A DNA stretch of 19,447 nucleotides from IMG/VR virus record IMGVR_UViG_2563366807_000009, one strand, 5' to 3'. The position numbers and the translations under genes are program-made. Origin of the DNA: a virus (lineage: Duplodnaviria; Heunggongvirae; Uroviricota; Caudoviricetes). The notes beneath the pieces were generated by a model. That model ran no database searches. It worked only from the letters and a program-made list of their open reading frames with translations, and was not told the DNA's origin. Positions 5,915 to 18,302 of this stretch are shown one piece after another. Each line of letters starts with the position of its first letter. Within the stretch, counting starts at the first letter, position 1.

Positions 5915-6847
5915 CTATTCGATTTTTTTAACCATGTAGTTACGTCGTGATGTTCCTAATCTTTCATTGTGAATCTCAGAAACGCTTACTACGAGCGATA
6001 TTCGTTCACCAACTTTATATTTACTTTGAATTTCTCCTAACATATCAATCGGATAAGAAGCCTTTATTTTTCCAAGCTCGCTTGCAATCTCCAATTTCCC
6101 GTACATGGATAAAATAGCAAGTTCGCCTGATATATGCTCATCCGGTAGCTGAATGACCTTCGTTAAAGCTAAGCGAGCATTCAGTTTTTTTATATCTTCT
6201 GAAGAAATTGACACTTGTCTGGTACCATCACTTAAAGGTCCAATCCAAGTAAGATCAAAGTTAAGACTATATTTTTCGCACTCATTTATGATGTTTTTTA
6301 GGTTAGCTGTTGATTGCGAACCAATTTCGGCAATTTTAGCCGTGAATGTTTCTTCATCAATGGATGAGAGTAGTGCAAAAATCTCCTTAACAGCATGACT
6401 GGATACTGTTTCGATGAGCTCGCAAGAACCAGTAGAAAAAGTAACACCTAACTTCGTCGAACCTGGACGCAAGTCTGCCAATCTCATGTCTAATGATTTT
6501 TTAACATCAATCGGCACACGACTAGAATCTTTCCCAGATCCAAGTCGGTAAACTGCTTTCTGTACAAGGGATGCGAGATTACCTGAAATTACAGATAGAA
6601 TATCTAACGGAATAGACCCGAAATCGACCAAAACACCTTTTAATCTCAACTCCATGAAATCACGTAAAGGATGTTGGTTATCGATTGCACGTTGTCTCTC
6701 TCGGAGATCGCTCAGATGGGAGTCAAGTGATCTAAATATAATGTCATCAGCAAATGATCTCCCCTTATTTTGAGCAAGCAGATCCACATCGCGTTGAATG
6801 AACGCAATTCGCTCCTTGAGGGAGTTGAATGTTTTTTCTTCGCTCAT
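5915..6847 (-). CDS. hypothetical 310-aa protein, second gene of the rex-slot cassette; no family recognised
   Basis: Long ORF whose ATG (6847..6845) overlaps the upstream gene's TGA as ATGA. Visibly AT-rich compared with flanking lambda-like genes. Immediately followed by a terminator. No transmembrane segment or catalytic motif that I can assign. Confidence 0.75.
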   Translation of the reverse strand: MSEEKTFNSLKERIAFIQRDVDLLAQNKGRSFADDIIFRSLDSHLSDLRERQRAIDNQHPLRDFMELRLKGVLVDFGSIPLDILSVISGNLASLVQKAVYRLGSGKDSSRVPIDVKKSLDMRLADLRPGSTKLGVTFSTGSCELIETVSSHAVKEIFALLSSIDEETFTAKIAEIGSQSTANLKNIINECEKYSLNFDLTWIGPLSDGTRQVSISSEDIKKLNARLALTKVIQLPDEHISGELAILSMYGKLEIASELGKIKASYPIDMLGEIQSKYKVGERISLVVSVSEIHNERLGTSRRNYMVKKIE

Positions 6848-7317
6848 AACATTACCCTCACGAGGCCTTTAGGATTCTCCTTCCGATCAAAACCAAACCA
6901 CCCTCTCCAGTAACTTCGCCTTTCACTATAATCGATTTCTGGATGATTTTCAGGCAGCAAAAGAACGTCAATGCTGTAGTTTTCTTTAATAAAATCTCTA
7001 TTTAACAATGAGCTGACCAATGGCATCAGCGTGTTTGGCAAAGAGTTTAGGGCCAAATAATCGACGACCACGAGTATATCTATGTCATCAGGTTCAGGTT
7101 TCTCTGTAGTGAATGAACCATCGATCCACACTTCAGAGAAACATAGACACTGCTGATTAACAAGTTTAAATTGCTCAATAAGCTGTATAAAATTACAGTA
7201 TAGCATACTTCTTCTAACGGATTTTGGGAAGGTGTCGACACAAAGAGACTTGATGCCATCACTATCCATATCATGAAATCCTGCTGTAAGAAGAGGTGGG
7301 AAGCTAGGCTTTTCCAT
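6844..7317 (-). CDS. minimal nucleotidyltransferase-like protein (Pol-beta superfamily signature), first gene of the rex-slot cassette
   Basis: 157-aa ORF 81 bp downstream of the cI stop, AAGGA before the ATG. Contains GSFTTEKPEPDDIDILVVV, i.e. G-S, 9 residues, D-I-D, hydrophobic strand, with a later acidic strand YSIDVLLL. This is the hG[GS]-x9-13-Dh[DE]h pattern of MNT-type nucleotidyltransferases. Confidence 0.75.
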   Translation of the reverse strand: MEKPSFPPLLTAGFHDMDSDGIKSLCVDTFPKSVRRSMLYCNFIQLIEQFKLVNQQCLCFSEVWIDGSFTTEKPEPDDIDILVVVDYLALNSLPNTLMPLVSSLLNRDFIKENYSIDVLLLPENHPEIDYSERRSYWRGWFGFDRKENPKGLVRVML

Positions 7318-8492: not shown

Positions 8493-9032
8493 ATGCAACC
8501 ACTTCCATACCAACAGACTAGCGGATTTAGCCCGACTGCGGTGATAAATCGTTCTCAAACAAAACAGGTGCCAGGCCACGAAAAAATCCGTGATGCCGTC
8601 CGCGCCTGGTCGGCTGTAGATAATCAGGATGTCGTTGCCACACTCATTGTGAATGAGTATCGGGAGCAGGGCGGCGGCACCATCGATTTCCCTGATGATG
8701 TCAGCCGTGCACGCCAGAAGCTGTTCCGCTTCCTCGATAACAAATTCGATTCTGAAAAATACCGAAATAACGTGCGTGAACTGACCCCGGCAATTCTGGC
8801 GGTACTACCGCTGGAATATCGCGGTTACCTGGTTGAGCAGGATAGCTTCATGGCTAGGTTGGCTGAAATGGAAAAGGAACTCAGTGAGGCAAAACAGGCT
8901 GTCATTCTCAACGCACCACGCCACCAGAAACTGAAGGAAATTAGTGAAGGTATTGTATCGATGTTTCGTGTGGACCCAGATCTGGCTGGTCCATTGATGG
9001 CGATGGTTACTACCATGCTGGGGGCGATATGA
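8493..9032 (+). CDS. YdaT-family protein in the cII position
   Basis: 179 aa with AAGGAG Shine-Dalgarno. Segments EYREQGGG and TPAILAVLPLEYR resemble Rac YdaT as I recall it (EYLRQGGG, IPAILAILPREL). Not lambda cII. Confidence 0.65.
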   Translation: MQPLPYQQTSGFSPTAVINRSQTKQVPGHEKIRDAVRAWSAVDNQDVVATLIVNEYREQGGGTIDFPDDVSRARQKLFRFLDNKFDSEKYRNNVRELTPAILAVLPLEYRGYLVEQDSFMARLAEMEKELSEAKQAVILNAPRHQKLKEISEGIVSMFRVDPDLAGPLMAMVTTMLGAI

Positions 9033-9118
9033 CAGGTTCAGAAATGGCGAAAGCCGGTCTGCTGGAACAGAACCGACTTTCAGGTGCAAATCGTAACACA
9101 CTCATTGCGGGAGGAATT

Positions 9119-10048
9119 ATGGCAAACACTGCTGAGATATTCAATTTTCCAGTGCCGGATGCGGCACAAAAGGAGCCGCGCGTGGCAGATCTCGATGATG
9201 GTTATACGCGCATTGCAAATGAGTTGCTGGAAGCTGTGATGCTGGCCGGATTAACACAGCACCAGCTTCTGGTCTTCCTGGCTGTCATGCGCAAAACATA
9301 TGGCTTTAATAAAAAACTGGATTGGGTGAGCAACGAGCAACTTTCCGAATTGACCGGGATATTGCCGCACAAGTGTTCTGCTGCAAAAAGCGTTCTGGTA
9401 AAGCGTGGGATTCTTATTCAGAGCGGGCGGAATATCGGCATTAATAATGTGGTCAGTGAATGGTCAACATTACCCGAATCAGGTAAGAAAAATAAAGTTT
9501 ACCTGAAAGAGGTAAATTTACCTGAATCAGGTAAGAAAAGTTTACCCAAATCAGGTAAAGGCGTTTACCCGAATCAGGTAAACACAAAAGACAAACTAAC
9601 AAAAGACAATATAAAACCTTTTTCGTCCGAGAATTCTGGCGAATCCTCTGACCAGCCAGAAAACGATCTTCCTGTGGTGAAACCGGATGCTGCAATTCAG
9701 AGCGGCAGCAAGTGGGGGACAGCAGAAGACCTGACCGCCGCAGAGTGGATGTTTGACATGGTGAAGACTATCGCACCATCAGCCAGAAAACCGAATTTTG
9801 CTGGGTGGGCTAACGATATCCGCCTGATGCGTGAACGTGACGGACGTAACCACCGCGACATGTGCGTGCTGTTCCGCTGGGCCTGCCAGGACAACTTCTG
9901 GTCCGGTAACGTGCTGAGTCCGGCCAAACTCCGCGACAAGTGGACCCAGCTCGAAATCAACCGGAACAAGCAACAGGCTGGCGTGACAGTCGGCAAACCA
10001 AAACTCGACCTGACAAACACTGACTGGATTTACGGGGTGGATCTATGA
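9119..10048 (+). CDS. O: replication initiator O
   Basis: From ATG 9119 (GGAGG upstream): MANTAEIFNF...VADLDDGY... with a C-terminal half KWGTAEDLTAAEWMFDMVKTIAPSARKPNFAGWANDIRLMRERDGRNHRDMCVLFRW... matching lambda O as recalled. The N-terminal domain differs. An in-frame ATG at 9029 overlapping the upstream stop is an alternative start. Confidence 0.88.
   Translation: MANTAEIFNFPVPDAAQKEPRVADLDDGYTRIANELLEAVMLAGLTQHQLLVFLAVMRKTYGFNKKLDWVSNEQLSELTGILPHKCSAAKSVLVKRGILIQSGRNIGINNVVSEWSTLPESGKKNKVYLKEVNLPESGKKSLPKSGKGVYPNQVNTKDKLTKDNIKPFSSENSGESSDQPENDLPVVKPDAAIQSGSKWGTAEDLTAAEWMFDMVKTIAPSARKPNFAGWANDIRLMRERDGRNHRDMCVLFRWACQDNFWSGNVLSPAKLRDKWTQLEINRNKQQAGVTVGKPKLDLTNTDWIYGVDL
9470..9583 (+). 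repeat. ori iterons inside O, followed by an A-rich tract
   Basis: Five direct copies of a roughly 19-bp unit TTTACCYGAATCAGGTAAR at 9470-9487, 9498-9516 (degenerate), 9517-9535, 9541-9560 and 9564-9582, then ACACAAAAGACAAACTAACAAAAGACAATATAAAACC. Confidence 0.85.
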
Positions 10049-10746
10049 AAAACATCGCCGCACAGATGGTTAACTTTGACCGTGAGCAGATGCGTCGGAT
10101 CGCCAACAACATGCCGGAACAGTATGACGAAAAGCCACAGGTACAGCAGGTAGCGCAGATCATCAACGGTGTGTTCAGCCAGTTACTGGCAACTTTCCCG
10201 GCGAGCCTGGCTAATCGTGAGCAGAACGAACTGAACGAAATCCGCCGCCAGTGGGTTCTGGCTTTCCGGGAAAACGGGATCACCACGATGGAACAGGTTA
10301 ACGCAGGAATGCGCGTAGCCCGTCGGCAGAATCGACCATTCCTGCCATCCCCCGGACAGTTTGTAGCCTGGTGCCGGGAAGAAGCATCCGTTATTGCCGG
10401 ACTACCAAACACCAGCGAGCTGGTTGATATGGTTTACGAGTATTGCCGGAAGCGTGGCCTGTATCCGGATGCAGAGTCTTATCCGTGGAAATCAAACGCG
10501 CACTACTGGCTGGTTACCAACCTGTATCAGAACATGCGGGCCAATGCGCTTACTGATGCGGAATTACGGCGCAAGGCTGCCGATGAACTGACTTGTATGA
10601 CCGCGCGAATTAACCGTGGTGAGGCGATACCTGAACCAGTAAAACAACTTCCTGTCATGGGCGGTAGACCTCTAAATCGTGCACAGGCTCTGGCGAAGAT
10701 CGCAGAAATCAAAGCGAAGTTCGGACTGAAAGGAGCAACTGTATGA
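10045..10746 (+). CDS. P: replication protein P (DnaB helicase loader)
   Basis: 233 aa, MKNIAAQMVNFDREQMRRIANNMPEQYDEKPQVQQVAQIINGVFSQLLATFPASLANR..., matches lambda P as recalled. ATGA overlap with the O stop. Confidence 0.95.
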   Translation: MKNIAAQMVNFDREQMRRIANNMPEQYDEKPQVQQVAQIINGVFSQLLATFPASLANREQNELNEIRRQWVLAFRENGITTMEQVNAGMRVARRQNRPFLPSPGQFVAWCREEASVIAGLPNTSELVDMVYEYCRKRGLYPDAESYPWKSNAHYWLVTNLYQNMRANALTDAELRRKAADELTCMTARINRGEAIPEPVKQLPVMGGRPLNRAQALAKIAEIKAKFGLKGATV

Positions 10747-11045
10747 CGGGCAAAGAGGCAATTATTCATTACCTGGGGACGCATAAGAGCTTCTGTGCGC
10801 AGGACGTTGCTGCGGTAACAGGCGCAACAGTAACCAGTATAAATCAGGCTGCGGCTAAAATGGCACGGGCAGGAATCTTGGTCGTTGATGGTAAGGTCTG
10901 GCGAACGGTGTATTACCGGTTCGCTACCAGGGAAGAACGGGAAGGAAAGGTGAGCACGAATCTGATTTTCAAGGAGTGTCGCCAGAGTGCCGCGATGAAA
11001 CGAGTGTTGGCAGTGTATGGAGATATGAACTTAAACTTGCTGTGA
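10743..11045 (+). CDS. ren: Ren
   Basis: MTGKEAIIHYLGTHKSFCAQDVAAVTGATVTSINQAAAKMARAGILVVDGKVWRTVYYRFATREEREGK... matches lambda Ren as recalled. The last few residues diverge, marking a mosaic junction. Confidence 0.88.
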   Translation: MTGKEAIIHYLGTHKSFCAQDVAAVTGATVTSINQAAAKMARAGILVVDGKVWRTVYYRFATREEREGKVSTNLIFKECRQSAAMKRVLAVYGDMNLNLL

Positions 11046-11293
11046 CGGTTTTCATCGGTAACACACCATGTAATCTAGCAGTCAGCTTAGAAATAGGAGC
11101 GGCAGTTAAAGATTTTTCAGTTAGTAGAAAATTACTGTTATTGCAGGGATCTAATCACCGGAGAGTCGTTCCATTTGTCTTATGATTACCTGAAGTCCGT
11201 TAGTTCGTTGGTAATCACCGTTTTTGTTAGAGAAGTAAGCATCGCTGACAAAATATTCTCAACGATGCCTGCTTTATTGCTACTACAAATTAA

Positions 11294-12796
11294 TTAAATT
11301 GCATCTGCAAACTCTGGGGTTTTTCGCTCAGGTATAATTGATGAGTTGCTGTTGTCACTTTTTTTATTTTCATGATTACGAATAGCCAATGACTCATTAA
11401 AGTCTTTTGCGACTGCTGTCTCAATAAATTCAATTTCTGAATCAGAGTGTTTTTTAACAGCTTCTTTGATCTCATCCAGAGTAACATAGAAAAACTCTTT
11501 TCTACGATTTACAAGATTGACTCTCTTTTTATCGAAGACATCATGTAGTTTTTTTTCTAATGATGGAGCGTCCTCCGAATAAATCATGGCATGTACATCA
11601 AAAATAAAAGGAACAGATGCATCACCGAGCTCATTTACACGGTCTTGCGGATCAAGACGTCGTGTCATGCCTATTTTATAAACATTCTCCCCAAAAGAAC
11701 CTATGTTCGAAATAATATAAACATGACCTTGTTTGGTTTGTTGTGCCATGGATAATGCTCTTTGATGCTTTGATTCAGCCTGCGACAAACTCTGTTCTAG
11801 TTCGGCAATGCGATTTTCGAGGCGCTGCTTCATGTCACCAGTAACTTTTTCCATTTCCTTTCTTGCAGCTTCAATTGCTTTTTTATAACGGCGCTCTTCT
11901 GCCTCTGCGTCTTGCATGGCCTTTTCTATTTCTCGTTGTGCACGCTCCTCCTCTCTCATTTGTGCCCTTATTTCTGCCTGTTCTTCTTTTTCTTTCTGTT
12001 TTTGCTCACGATATTCATGGGTAAGCCACAATTCCTCAAGTTTTTTATTGAGGTATTTAGTGTTTATATATATGTGATTTTGCTCGTTTAGTTTATTTAT
12101 GGCCTCAAATGCCTTTGTGATGCGTTCTTCCATTTTAGTGATGTTTTTCCACGTGCAATTGCTAATTGCAGCATCACATTCATTATTAAATGCTCTAGTA
12201 GTTAGCCTGATATTTCTGTCTGTCATTTTTTTACCCTCTGCTCGAGAGCCTTCAACAGTCCATTGGGTTGTACAATATACTGCGCCAGAGTGGGTTTTAT
12301 CCCGCAGCATTAATTTCTGTTCATCCCTGATGGATTTTATTTTGTTTTTAAATTGCTCTGAATCTTCAAAATTAAAATGAGGTTCGTAAAATCCTAGTTC
12401 GGCTAGCTCAACATCTTCTGAATAAATAGAAATTTGCCTTACTAGTTTATCATATATTTCTTTCTTCTCTTTATAAGTTCTTCTTAGCTCTTGGATTTGT
12501 TTATTGATACCATCCATTTTTTCAATGGTGTTTGTTAGTTCATTATTGGCATTTTCTTTTACTTTTAGGGATTCTTCTTTTATTATGGAGCATTCTTGCT
12601 CTGTTTTCTCAATAAGCTTCTTACATTCTTCTTCTACATTAAAATAATCTGCAAAGCGAGATTTGTATTCTTCATTTTTTTGATTGCTATCACTTAATTC
12701 TAATTGTATTTTTTTGATGCGTTTGATTGCAGCTATATAAAGAACAAGAACAACCAATAAAAATATGATTGCAAGTAATAGAGGAGTTTGAGTCAT
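11294..12796 (-). CDS. membrane-anchored coiled-coil protein with C-terminal GIY-YIG/T5orf172-like nuclease domain; candidate anti-phage defence protein
   Basis: 500 aa, strongly AT-rich, convergent with ren. N-terminal hydrophobic helix (LLLAIIFLLVVLVLYIAAI), long E/K/R-rich predicted coiled coils, C-terminal GHVYIISNIGSFGENVYKIGMTRRLDPQDRVNELG...E, i.e. GIY...YIG...R...E spacing. AAGGAA Shine-Dalgarno before the ATG. Confidence 0.85.
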   Translation of the reverse strand: MTQTPLLLAIIFLLVVLVLYIAAIKRIKKIQLELSDSNQKNEEYKSRFADYFNVEEECKKLIEKTEQECSIIKEESLKVKENANNELTNTIEKMDGINKQIQELRRTYKEKKEIYDKLVRQISIYSEDVELAELGFYEPHFNFEDSEQFKNKIKSIRDEQKLMLRDKTHSGAVYCTTQWTVEGSRAEGKKMTDRNIRLTTRAFNNECDAAISNCTWKNITKMEERITKAFEAINKLNEQNHIYINTKYLNKKLEELWLTHEYREQKQKEKEEQAEIRAQMREEERAQREIEKAMQDAEAEERRYKKAIEAARKEMEKVTGDMKQRLENRIAELEQSLSQAESKHQRALSMAQQTKQGHVYIISNIGSFGENVYKIGMTRRLDPQDRVNELGDASVPFIFDVHAMIYSEDAPSLEKKLHDVFDKKRVNLVNRRKEFFYVTLDEIKEAVKKHSDSEIEFIETAVAKDFNESLAIRNHENKKSDNSNSSIIPERKTPEFADAI

Positions 12797-13104
12797 TCGT
12801 GCTATTCCTTACGGACAATTTAAGACGTTTTGTATTAAATCCTGTTCAATGTGTATGCGGGTGATTGCTACCGCTTACAATCTTCATAATTATCAGTTAG
12901 ATAGACTCGCTAGTAAATAATTTCATTTTTTGCAATATTCTTATTGAATATTTCAATTTATGAAATGAACTCTTTATCCTTTCAAGGTGAAAGGTTTCTT
13001 CTTCGGAAATATTTGCTCTCGTGTGACGTATAAAGACCTTTGATTTTCAAAAATCAGTAGGGAATAATATAGTTACTGTCGGCCTGAACACCCGGTGGTG
13101 GGGT

Positions 13105-13196
13105 TGCGCTAAACGGGGACGTTTATGCGCACACACAATCCAAACTCTCATCTCCATTCACAGATGCAGAAATGCACCTACGATTTTTTACATTCG
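13105..13196 (+). repeat. direct repeat copy A (about 92 bp)
   Basis: TGCGCTAAACGGGGACGTTTATGCGCACA... is identical over the first 29 nt to 15039 onward and shows only a few mismatches thereafter. Contains a 10-bp bulged hairpin GCGCTAAACG/CGTTTATGCGC with a GGGA loop. Confidence 0.85.
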
Positions 13197-13341
13197 GTGT
13201 TTTACTTCGACAGCCAGAATTGGGAGTCTCTATTCGTCTGGCGGCTAAAGGTGATATGGAAATCGTTATGTTTTGGCCTGAGGTAGTTGTAACTGTTGTA
13301 GCAGCTATGGATGTGATCATCATGGTGTCCATTTACTGGGG

Positions 13342-13452
13342 TTGACGACATGATTTATCCGGCGCTATATTCTGTGCGTTGCCGCAAAATCGGCACACGG
13401 GATTGGCGTCCCGGGATACTACTCAACGCATACCGCGTTAAGCGGTTTTTTT
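13342..13452 (+). ncRNA. candidate short terminated transcript (sRNA or attenuated leader) upstream of the Bro-N gene
   Basis: TTGACG (13342-13347), 18-bp spacer, TATATT (13366-13371). Downstream, a GC stem ACCGC/GCGGT with GTTAA loop (13432-13446) runs into a T tract to 13452. The region between is GC-rich and self-complementary. No ORF. Confidence 0.3.
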
Positions 13453-13608
13453 GTGCGCTAAGCACGGCTATGCCCAAATTATGGTGGGCTGTGTGAGGGC
13501 TTCTTCGGAAGCGCCGGGTTTGAGTAGCCGGTTACGCCAACCTTACACAGTTCACCACCAGTCGATTGGCGTCGTTGGTGGTGATGGTTAACCTGATGAG
13601 GTGATACT

Positions 13609-14217
13609 ATGACTACTCAATTAGCATTCCACAAAACGACGTTTACCCCGATTTGCCACAATAACAGAATTTGGCTTACTGCCACTGAAGTTGGTTTAGC
13701 ACTGGAATATGCGGACGATAAAGCAGTTCAGCGCATTTACTCTCGGCACTCAGATGAATTCACAGATATGATGACAAGGGTGGTCAAAGTGACCACCCCT
13801 CGTGGAATGCAGGAGTCTCGAGTATTTAGCCTTCGCGGAGCCCATTTGATCGCCATGTTTGCTCGTACTCCTGTGGCCAAAGAATTCCGCCGCTGGGTTC
13901 TGGATATTCTCGATCGAGAAGTTCAACAATCCCCAATCACAAAACAATTCACTGATAACGAACTTTGCACACTCGCCTGGTTATGGCGAGCAAGTGATAC
14001 GATGTTAACCGCCTGCCAGAACGTTACGCCCCTTCTTCAGGTCGCAGAGCATCGCGAAGCAGGTAGATTCACTTCAATCGAACAAGAATATCCTCGGATA
14101 CTCAACAGGGCGCGAGAAATCCTTGCCAGAGAAACGGCGCATGTAAAATTCCAACCGTGGCAGGATGATAAGTGGAGTCGTGTGTTACCATATTTCCGTC
14201 AGAATCTGTTGCAATAA
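13609..14217 (+). CDS. Bro-N domain antirepressor-like protein
   Basis: 202 aa, GAGGTG Shine-Dalgarno. N-terminal IWLTATEVGLALEYADDKAVQRIYSRHSDEF...RVFSLRGAHLIAMFARTPVAKEFRRWVLDIL fits the Bro-N/antirepressor pattern as I know it. Confidence 0.75.
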   Translation: MTTQLAFHKTTFTPICHNNRIWLTATEVGLALEYADDKAVQRIYSRHSDEFTDMMTRVVKVTTPRGMQESRVFSLRGAHLIAMFARTPVAKEFRRWVLDILDREVQQSPITKQFTDNELCTLAWLWRASDTMLTACQNVTPLLQVAEHREAGRFTSIEQEYPRILNRAREILARETAHVKFQPWQDDKWSRVLPYFRQNLLQ

Positions 14218-14236
14218 AGTCACTAGTTAGAAATAC

Positions 14237-14277
14237 TGCCAGCATTCTGCGATGACGGAAGTGCTGGCATTTTTTTT
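14237..14277 (+). terminator. Rho-independent terminator after the Bro-N gene
   Basis: 8-bp stem TGCCAGCA/TGCTGGCA (14237-14244 and 14262-14269) followed by eight T residues (14270-14277). Confidence 0.7.
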
Positions 14278-14452
14278 GGTAATGTGCGAGTCCATTTCAT
14301 AAAATACGGGTACTGGAACTGGACGATATAATCTAAAAGATACCATTATCAGTAGCATTAAAATCGCTATGTGCCGATACGGATATAAATTATATTGATT
14401 GTTCACATACCTTATTGGATATTACTGAGGGGTGTTTATATAAGGTGTAACG

Positions 14453-14962
14453 ATGATGTGGAACTTTGACAGTGCCGACTTAAGTGCAATAGCAGCAGGC
14501 ATTTCTGCGTTTGGCACATTAGCCGCAGCGGGGTCGGCGCTTGCAAGTTGGTGCACGTCAAAAAAAGCGCTGCAGCTACAAAATAGAGTTTACCTTTATG
14601 AGTCTTTAAAGGCTTGCGCTGAGAGAGCCAATTCATCAGCTAAAGATAAGCGCGGATCTGAATGGAGCGTTAATGATGCAGCGGATATCATCAGGTGCCT
14701 AGTACGGGCGATGGAGCTCATCAAGCAGGATAGCCAGCAGAAAGAAGGTAATCAGGCATTAATGTTGAAACAGTACTTTGTTAATCTGCTAATAATGGAA
14801 CTGTACGAGGAAGTTCATAACGGTGATGCGGCTGATTCTGTTTTTAAAAGTACGGAACCTACACAAGTACTTGATAACTTATGGAGCAAATGGCAGGAGG
14901 CTATAGCTTTTTTTGATATTTGGAATTACCCAGTTGCGACTGAGGAAGACTTGGCAGACTAA
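14453..14962 (+). CDS. hypothetical protein with N-terminal hydrophobic anchor (169 aa)
   Basis: AAGGTG Shine-Dalgarno. An N-terminal hydrophobic stretch of about 25 residues (LSAIAAGISAFGTLAAAGSALASW), remainder hydrophilic. Own promoter region after the upstream terminator. No family recognised. Confidence 0.7.
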   Translation: MMWNFDSADLSAIAAGISAFGTLAAAGSALASWCTSKKALQLQNRVYLYESLKACAERANSSAKDKRGSEWSVNDAADIIRCLVRAMELIKQDSQQKEGNQALMLKQYFVNLLIMELYEEVHNGDAADSVFKSTEPTQVLDNLWSKWQEAIAFFDIWNYPVATEEDLAD

Positions 14963-15038
14963 TTTTCAGCACATTTGATTTCCAATAATCAACCAGCCAT
15001 AATCATGCCATTGGAGCTTGAACAACTCCGGTGACTTC

Positions 15039-15130
15039 TGCGCTAAACGGGGACGTTTATGCGCACATACAATCCAAACTCTCTTCTCCCTTCACAGATG
15101 CAGAGATGCACCTGCGATTTTTTGCATCCA
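15039..15130 (+). repeat. direct repeat copy B, immediately upstream of ybcN
   Basis: Same unit as 13105-13196, including the bulged hairpin. Ends 26 bp before the ybcN GTG start. Confidence 0.85.
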
Positions 15131-15156
15131 GCGTTTGACCTCTGCGGAGGTGAAGC

Positions 15157-17219: not shown

Positions 17220-18302
17220 TTAGAACTGGTAAACCAGACCTACAGCAACGATGTCATCAGTATCAATACCAGCTGTTTTGGTAAACTTACTATCGTCAAT
17301 TAAGTTGATTTTGTAATCAACAAAAGTGGACATGTTTTTATTAAAGTAGTAAGTAGCACCGACATCGACATACTTGACTAAGTCTCGGTCACCATGAACA
17401 CCAAGGTCTTTACCTTTTGACTGAAGGTAAGCAACAGATGGGCGCAGACCGAAGTCAAACTGATATTGTGCTACTGCTTCAAAGTTTTGTGCTTTGTTTG
17501 CAATATGGTTATTACCAAAAACGGTCATATTCTGAGTTTCAGAATATGTGGTAGCCAGATAGATATTGTTCGCATCATATTTCAGGCCTGCAGCCCATAC
17601 TTCCGCATTTTTGCCGGAGGCATTGAATTTGCTCTTACCATAGGCGACCTGACCGTCAGTGCGATCTGATTTAGCATAGGTTGCACCCACGCCGAATCCT
17701 TCATACTCATAAGTAGTGGAGAAACCGAAACCATCACCATTGGCTTCAGTTACGTCAGTGCGGTCATTTTTACCCTGATACTGAGCAGCAAAGTTCAGGC
17801 CATCGACCAGACCAAAGAAGTCGTTGTTACGATAAGTTGCAACACCAGTAGTGCGACCAGTCATGAACACATCTGTTTGGGTCCAGGTATCACCACCGAA
17901 TTCTGGCAGGACGTCAGTCCACGCACCGATGTCGTATGCTACACCGTAGTTACGGCCGTAATCGATTGAGCCGTAATCACCAAATTTCAGGCCTGCAAAT
18001 GCAAGACGGGTTTTGTCTTTGGAAGAACCTTGAGATTCAGCGCGGTTGCCTTTGAATTCATATTCCCACTGACCGAAACCAGTCAGTTGATCGTTGATTT
18101 GGGTTTCACCTTTGAAGCCAAGACGGGCATAAGTAGTATCACCATCATCTGCATCATTAGAGGAGAAGTAGTGCTTAGCATTAACTTTCCCGTACAGATC
18201 CAGCTTGTTACTGTCTTTATTATAAATTTCAGCTGCCTGAGCAGACATCGCCATCAGTACTGATGCAGCTACAGCAGAAATTGCCACTGTTAATTTTTTC
18301 AT
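17220..18302 (-). CDS. nmpC: outer-membrane porin, OmpC/OmpF family (NmpC/Lc-type), apparently intact
   Basis: 360 aa with signal peptide [29 protein letters not shown], porin hallmarks and C-terminal ...VAVGLVYQF. Uninterrupted here. Confidence 0.93.

Follow-up and report, generated by a model that had tools for sequence, protein, structure and literature searches.

The gene at 11294..12796 on the minus strand of a 19,447-nucleotide stretch of Caudoviricetes DNA (IMG/VR record IMGVR_UViG_2563366807_000009; the whole stretch is called the window below) almost certainly encodes SNIPE, the published membrane-anchored nuclease that cuts phage DNA during injection. The system was found by functional selection in ECOR26 as PD-lambda-1 (contig QOXL01000020, protein RCP76574.1, coding sequence (CDS) at 49060-50562, 1503 bp), on a cloned fragment spanning 48998-50844 of that contig (PMC9519451), and was renamed SNIPE by Saxton et al. 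(Nature 2026, PMC13190303). It is therefore already known, and the window gene is its archetype allele. A first-pass annotation, made from the letters of the window and a list of its open reading frames (ORFs), had proposed an inner-membrane nuclease acting on entering phage DNA; each element of the proposal holds, and the gene matches the characterised SNIPE at every comparable position, with the function itself shown in the published work (PMC13190303). Right family and right mechanism were thus named from raw sequence, which has its value as a calibration point, and the shortfall is one of novelty only, as the protein had already been published (PMC13190303).

Identity of the gene with SNIPE

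The ORF list gives an intact frame with an ATG start, 500 amino acids and a stop codon, exactly as the first-pass annotation had read it. That annotation had also called the gene strongly AT-rich, and its GC content is indeed 35.1%, compared with 45.3% for the whole window; in a sliding profile, values run from 29 to 40% across the gene and from 52 to 54% across the adjacent replication genes. An open frame of 500 amino acids in DNA of 35% GC is far beyond chance. The features of the gene are as follows.

11294..12796, minus strand: SNIPE (PD-lambda-1) CDS, from the ORF list, PADLOC, identity to PhiR26_1, primer footprints and RefSeq WP_000195116.1
12725..12784, minus strand: codons for residues 5-24, the single N-terminal transmembrane (TM) helix (PLLLAIIFLLVVLVLYIAAI), from a Kyte-Doolittle maximum of 3.37 and the published ΔTM junction
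12062..12370, minus strand: codons for residues 143-245, a compact central domain with Pfam DUF4041, from AlphaFold2, Pfam and a deletion junction
12041-12208, minus strand: the published ΔDUF4041 deletion, residues 197-252, from primers oDS51/52
11420..11728, minus strand: codons for residues 357-459, the GIY-YIG (T5orf172/MUG113) nuclease domain, from Pfam and the predicted fold
11555-11557, minus strand: codon of the catalytic residue E414
12889..12917, minus strand: candidate sigma-70 promoter of the SNIPE gene (TTTACT, 17-nt spacer, GATAAT), predicted by a consensus scan with 9/12 matches
11237..11270, minus strand: strong hairpin (12-bp stem) where the gene converges with ren, a candidate terminator, from RNA folding, its function being inferred

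Several lines of evidence tie this gene to the characterised one. The PADLOC model for PD-Lambda-1 (PDLC03976) matches over its full length, with residues 1-485 aligned to profile positions 1-485 of 491 (E = 1.9e-198), and a second PADLOC model, PDLC03977, matches at E = 7e-195. The Escherichia phage PhiR26_1 carries a gene annotated 'PD-lambda-1' with which the window gene shares 100% DNA identity, and at 1503 bp the window CDS is equal in length to that of ECOR26 RCP76574.1. All nine residues numbered by Saxton et al. are present (E414, L253, E264, K305, E223, T319, W257, I308 and N250). The gene-specific parts of all 22 primers from their supplement match the window exactly, the sole mismatches being the designed mutations, and the footprints of these primers reach 36 nt past the stop codon and into 17 nt of the 5' leader. 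Deletion junctions mapped from the primers correspond to residues 5-24 for ΔTM and residues 197-252 for ΔDUF4041. With the ECOR26 gene, the window gene therefore shares length, residues, primer footprints, a full-length match to the hidden Markov model, and a position in a lambda-like prophage. A functional difference between the two is not expected, and nothing in the sequence contradicts the assignment to SNIPE. Other databases are less specific: PHROG 1847, of unknown function, matches the protein over its full length, RefSeq lists WP_000195116.1 as 'DUF4041 domain-containing protein' or 'SNIPE associated domain-containing protein', and NCBIfam, which has no model for the family, returned two weak matches only, to an SMC-related protein and to the MazE antitoxin, both far below their cut-offs.

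Domain architecture and conserved residues

The N-terminal TM helix claimed in the first-pass annotation falls at residues 5-24. The strongest hydrophobic 19-mer starts at residue 6 (Kyte-Doolittle mean 3.37), and the junction of the published ΔTM primers, oDS47/48, takes out exactly the 60 nt at 12725..12784. Pfam searches, which the annotation had suggested as a check on the DUF4041/T5orf172 family, returned three domains above their curated cut-offs: DUF4041 (PF13250; residues 198-252, E = 1.2e-19, 70.4 bits against a cut-off of 27), T5orf172 (PF10544; residues 357-449, E = 6.9e-17, 62.3 bits against 20) and MUG113 (PF13455; residues 373-449, E = 7e-19, 68.6 bits against 22.3). The last two are GIY-YIG-type matches, the lack of which the annotation had said would count against its proposal.

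An AlphaFold2 model of the protein has a mean predicted local distance difference test (pLDDT) score of 79.3. In its N-terminal half, a helix spanning residues 4-125 begins with the TM segment and is followed by a low-confidence stretch (128-143) and a compact domain at ~143-245 with pLDDT of 92-96; the C-terminal half consists of helices at 246-317 and 321-355 and an alpha/beta domain at 357-459. Residues 26-125 and 246-317 show significant hydrophobic heptad periodicity (p ≤ 0.001 vs. shuffles), so the long coiled coil of the first-pass annotation holds in these two stretches, with the qualification that the globular domain carrying DUF4041 interrupts it. The nuclease domain is predicted to adopt a GIY-YIG alpha/beta fold, matching SLX1. 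A Foldseek search with the full-length model gave no significant match, Slx1 appearing only at E = 1.4, and searches of the Protein Data Bank with the protein sequence and with a profile of 78 sequences returned nothing meaningful, no solved structure of any relative among them. Known GIY-YIG nucleases of the SLX1, I-TevI and UvrC type, as represented by solved structures, have no detectable sequence similarity to SNIPE. They also differ in their partner modules, which serve DNA recognition or repair, whereas the SNIPE nuclease is joined to a membrane anchor and DUF4041, and in that the tyrosine of its second motif is often phenylalanine across relatives.

The C-terminal motif reads G357-H-V-Y360, Y373-K-I-G376, R379-R380 and E414. 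In an alignment of 78 sequences, which are 49-62% identical to the query so that invariance is a weaker test than it appears, Y360, R379, R380 and E414 are each invariant (78/78). Invariant residues concentrate in the nuclease (G357, Y360, K374, G376, T378, R379, R380, R386, E389, E414, H418, N427, N430 and E434). The GIY...YIG...R...E segment recognised in the first-pass annotation is thus present, except that the tyrosine of 'YIG' is not consistently conserved: the Y373 column holds tyrosine in 46 sequences and phenylalanine in 32, with K374, I375 and G376 conserved, so the tyrosine hydroxyl is not required across the family. Column conservation is highest in the nuclease (0.79) and lowest at the N-terminus (0.31), where a hydrophobic segment is nevertheless found in 76 of the 78 sequences. 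The low N-terminal conservation agrees with the published view of the SNIPE N-terminus as a variable adaptor (PMC13190303).

Mode of action

Published work describes SNIPE defence as direct and non-abortive (PMC13190303). PhoA-LacZα fusions place the N-terminus in the periplasm and the remainder in the cytoplasm, at the inner membrane, over which the protein is spread uniformly (PMC13190303). Without its TM helix, SNIPE becomes toxic, moves to the nucleoid and makes double-strand breaks, and E414A abolishes this toxicity and defence alike; DUF4041 promotes DNA binding (PMC13190303). Adsorption and 32P uptake are unchanged under SNIPE, the injected 32P-labelled lambda DNA is fragmented, parS foci are ~30-fold fewer, and an induced prophage is unaffected (PMC13190303). 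Robust defence against lambda requires ManYZ, and TurboID-ManZ labels both SNIPE and the tape measure protein (TMP) gpH (PMC13190303). Among the BASEL phages, the SNIPE-sensitive ones are siphoviruses only; DUF4041 mutations strengthen defence against Bas14, escape mutations of Bas14 lie in its TMP, and a crosslinker at N250 captures that protein (PMC13190303).

In the resulting picture, the long helices space apart the central DUF4041 domain, whose binding of DNA and of the TMP is published, and the C-terminal GIY-YIG nuclease, and SNIPE associates with the mannose permease ManYZ, lambda's route of DNA entry at the inner membrane. When a siphovirus injects its genome, the TMP and the incoming DNA meet SNIPE at the membrane, where the nuclease cuts the entering DNA. 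Host DNA is spared because the membrane-bound enzyme is kept inactive. At the locus in the window, the gene would act as a self-contained ~2-kb cassette with its own promoter, expressed from the repressed prophage and protecting the lysogen. SNIPE discriminates self from non-self by location: it cuts DNA where the phage enters and reads neither sequence nor modification. Such location-based discrimination has already been published for exactly this protein, and the window gene adds no new biology to it.

Alternative explanations and related systems

We considered whether the tethered nuclease might instead be an abortive-infection toxin that infection sets free, so that the chromosome of the host is destroyed and the infected cell dies. 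Many prophage-borne nucleases act in this way, and the high toxicity of the ΔTM form, with double-strand breaks in host DNA, would fit (PMC13190303). However, published growth curves show that cells with SNIPE stay alive and reach confluence even when the multiplicity of infection is high, which those with the abortive control PD-lambda-3 do not, the DNA that is fragmented is the injected phage DNA, and recruiting host DNA to the membrane adds no toxicity (PMC13190303), which leaves this explanation very improbable. We give similarly little credence to a mobile homing-type endonuclease of the GIY-YIG/T5orf172 kind, whose task would be to carry its cassette into the ren-nin slot of other lambdoid phages and which would defend the cell only incidentally. 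A membrane anchor, kept as a hydrophobic N-terminus in 76/78 sequences, and a domain that binds the TMP would make no sense for a homing enzyme, other cargoes occupy the same slot without a nuclease, so that exchange needs none, and DNA already inside the cell is not attacked by SNIPE (PMC13190303). An SMC-like or ParA-like chromosome-segregation protein is suggested by the names that some sources give to cluster members or homologues ('chromosome segregation ATPase', 'chromosome partitioning protein ParA') and by the SMC-related NCBIfam match (E = 5.9e-4, 18.6 bits against a cut-off of 300). Weak matches of this kind cover the long helical regions only and stay far under the cut-off, and the Pfam scan found no ATPase domain, the confident domains being DUF4041 and GIY-YIG; we regard a role in segregation as exceedingly improbable.

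The identification as SNIPE and its projection onto the native locus have some limits. Identity to the cloned ECOR26 gene was established from the nine residues, the primer footprints and the PhiR26_1 copy rather than from a full-length alignment to RCP76574.1. The published assays used a plasmid clone, pKVS45-PD-lambda-1, so that defence at the level of a single-copy prophage is assumed. The promoter and terminator of the gene are predictions from a consensus scan and from RNA folding.

SNIPE resembles prophage superinfection-exclusion proteins in being prophage-encoded, in sitting at the inner membrane, in acting at genome injection and in its link to the TMP and a sugar permease. HK97 gp15 and T4 Imm are examples of superinfection exclusion at DNA entry. 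The resemblance is one of mode of action and not of family membership, and the Pfam, PHROG and PADLOC scans found no similarity of SNIPE to superinfection-exclusion families. Those proteins block entry without a nuclease, whereas with SNIPE uptake is equal and the DNA is then cut (PMC13190303); exclusion proteins acting at DNA entry are named only generally in the Discussion of that paper (PMC13190303). Zorya and Kiwa likewise act at or near the membrane site of genome injection (PMC13190303). Both are multi-gene systems thought to sense envelope perturbation, whereas SNIPE works as one protein, through its constitutive localisation and its protein contacts; a PADLOC match of SNIPE to ZorA was insignificant (E = 0.12).

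Predicted transcription signals and the cassette slot

The SNIPE gene is convergent with the plus-strand genes O (9029-10048), P (10045-10746) and ren (10743-11045), which bears out the convergence with the replication operon seen in the first-pass annotation. Its candidate promoter ends 93 nt upstream of the ATG. The ECOR26 fragment that confers defence includes a 282-bp flank (Vassallo 2022 supplement, PMC9519451), and the candidate promoter would lie within it, provided that this flank is the upstream one. The hairpin starts 24 nt downstream of the stop codon, and minus-strand RNA from 11200-11296 folds at -24.6 kcal/mol (z = -3.6), with none of 200 shuffles as stable. In the interval separating ren from the SNIPE gene, no canonical intrinsic terminator turned up in a terminator scan, and plus-strand RNA between them folded no better than shuffles (z = -0.66 and +0.85); among the folds tested at this junction, the minus-strand hairpin after the SNIPE stop codon alone stands out.

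The window starts in host DNA, with the 5' part of fimZ (1-474) followed by tRNA-Arg(tct) (654-730), and the lambda-like prophage runs from ~729. Its attachment site is shared with the K-12 prophage DLP12, with which it has the named genes intD, ybcN, ninE, ybcO, rusA, ylcG, quuD, essD and rrrD in common, and at least 53 complete E. coli genomes contain 80% or more of the window. Compared with PhiR26_1, the window prophage is a variant, 97-98% identical, with another two-gene cargo beside the repressor gene. Cassette boundaries were taken from blastn comparisons with PhiR5_1, IdasGreatGrand and PhiR30_1, and define the following features.

11021..13104, no strand assigned: SNIPE cassette, missing from related lambdoid phages with other cargo in the slot, from blastn
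13105..13208, plus strand: junction element of ~100 bp (TGCGCTAAACGGGGACGTTTATGCGCACA...), the right bound of the cassette, from direct repeat D1 (104 nt)
15039-15142, plus strand: second copy of the junction element, just before ybcN/ninB, 89% identical to the first

Homology to these related phages stops at 10988-11020, the 3' end of ren, and restarts at 13105 (13039 in PhiR30_1); most lambdoid phages lose their match at window position 11022. The gap from ~11020 to 13105 places SNIPE on a cassette of ~2 kb. In related phages the slot between ren and ninB holds other cargo: emrE/qacE with a hydrolase gene and ybcK, an acyltransferase gene with a lipoprotein gene, or small ORFs. The order ren-SNIPE-ybcN is kept in every genome sampled. 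The junction element also precedes ninB in PhiR30_1 and other lambdoid phages, occurs in two copies in IdasGreatGrand, and links SNIPE to ybcN in strain SB0258h1, where the cassette is joined directly to ybcN. The 104-nt repeat looks like a module-junction sequence for cassette exchange, as far as its placement in these sequences indicates. Strain SB0258h1 also has a SIR2 family gene, beyond its repressor gene. In E. coli FDAARGOS_1373 (locus L007, 2094-3641), where ren is frameshifted and the SNIPE allele is 98.1% identical, the two are separated by a gene for a 515-aa HD-domain protein, which may be further defence-type cargo stacked in the ren-ninB slot.

The first-pass annotation had placed the gene between ren and the nin region. 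It does lie between the two, without directly abutting the nin genes: a separate module (13209-15038), flanked by both copies of the junction element, intervenes. Rfam identifies in it the Hfq-binding small RNA (sRNA) isrK at 13380-13452 (plus strand, 58.7 bits) and a C4 antisense RNA at 13477-13562 (plus strand, 74.8 bits). Directly 3' of these is a Bro-N/P22_AR_C anti-repressor-like gene, annotated Rha (13609-14217, plus strand). Both a promoter-like site (13342-13371) and a hairpin resembling a terminator (13432-13446) fit an isrK unit. Together, isrK, C4 and Rha look like an sRNA-controlled anti-repressor module, which we take to be of the P1/P7 immI or Gifsy IsrK type. Travelling with the Rha module is a 169-aa ORF (14453-14962, plus strand; PHROG 1779, function unknown), annotated as hypothetical everywhere and without a match in Pfam or PADLOC. 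The Rha gene and this ORF were considered as SNIPE partners and rejected, because SNIPE joins ybcN directly in some strains and because the module comes with sRNA control elements and flanking repeats of its own.

Other cargo and regulatory genes of the prophage

Beside the repressor gene, at 5915-7317 on the minus strand, is a two-gene cargo encoding a 310-aa protein, which has no Pfam match, and a 157-aa DUF6932 protein. In PADLOC the pair matches a candidate system, PDC-M63B (E = 4e-42) together with PDC-M63A (E = 7.4e-43), and PhiR26_1 has a different gene at this position, which is that of lambda rexAB. Deletion of PDC-M63AB in its native host gave no defence phenotype in one study. A second cargo gene, at 17220-18302 on the minus strand, encodes a porin (Pfam Porin_1, E = 1.9e-151; annotated OmpC or OmpD). 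It lies antisense between the Q antiterminator and lysis genes, which is the position of nmpC in DLP12. The gene at the cII position (8493-9032, plus strand) encodes a protein with a YdaT toxin domain (Pfam PF06254, E = 8.5e-30), and is called 'cII' in phage records and 'toxin YdaT domain-containing protein' in RefSeq.

Distribution and relatives

Homologues of SNIPE are abundant, all 8000 candidates scoring at E ≤ 1e-5. At a threshold of 90% identity, the E. coli allele makes up a tight group with 975 members, found on at least 1000 contigs, and the next relatives outside it, from Vibrio, Shewanella and Photobacterium, are ~57% identical. DUF4041 proteins of these genera and of other Enterobacterales have the same three-part architecture, Pfam domains and invariant nuclease residues as SNIPE, and are at most ~57-62% identical to it among the matches listed. 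A near-uniform allele in E. coli, distant nearest relatives and a GC content of 35% suggest, at the level of sequence comparison, a fairly recent acquisition from a donor of lower GC. Of 5426 complete E. coli genomes, 131 contain the gene, in each case on the chromosome, and 109 of the 131 copies are at least 99% identical. An IS5 element splits it in strain LP-26-E1-261 (NZ_CM144251.1, 3693445-3696146), and a decayed prophage in strain P276M (locus L006, 4001-5017) retains just a shortened DUF4041 gene, an annotated CDS of 1017 nt. We read these split and shortened copies as signs of decay of the SNIPE gene in some strains.

The carrier phage and probable exclusion of its own kin

The native locus is not discussed by Saxton et al. 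(PMC13190303), and the earlier study says only that some systems lie in lambdoid prophages (PMC9519451). To this the locus analysis makes modest additions, namely a ~2-kb cassette at a swap site in DLP12-like prophages and a carrier whose TMP is of the targeted type. The tail module of PhiR26_1 is complete and of lambda type, with a tape measure gene 98.9% identical to lambda H. The exact arrangement of the window recurs in strain EC6868, in a prophage that appears to be complete and whose TMP shares 97.8% identity with that of PhiR26_1. Phages of the lambda-H TMP clade are ManYZ-dependent and highly sensitive to SNIPE (PMC13190303). A carrier with a lambda-type TMP is itself of the sensitive kind, and therefore a SNIPE lysogen should cut the DNA of incoming phages of the carrier's type. 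SNIPE probably excludes phages of its carrier's own type in this way, on top of repressor immunity. On the other side of the balance, this exclusion is inferred from TMP similarity, and the tail genes lie outside the window and were read from PhiR26_1 and EC6868.

We see about an even chance for a broader account, in which native SNIPE would be mainly a weapon against its carrier's own kind, rightward lytic transcription would damp the antisense gene after induction, and the ren-ninB slot would be an exchange point for defence and other cargo. Neither of the two papers takes up any of these points (PMC9519451, PMC13190303). If the own-kin reading is true, it would extend a known system rather than define a new one: whether or not repressor immunity applies, a lysogen would destroy the entering DNA of lambda-like phages, be they siblings or heteroimmune.

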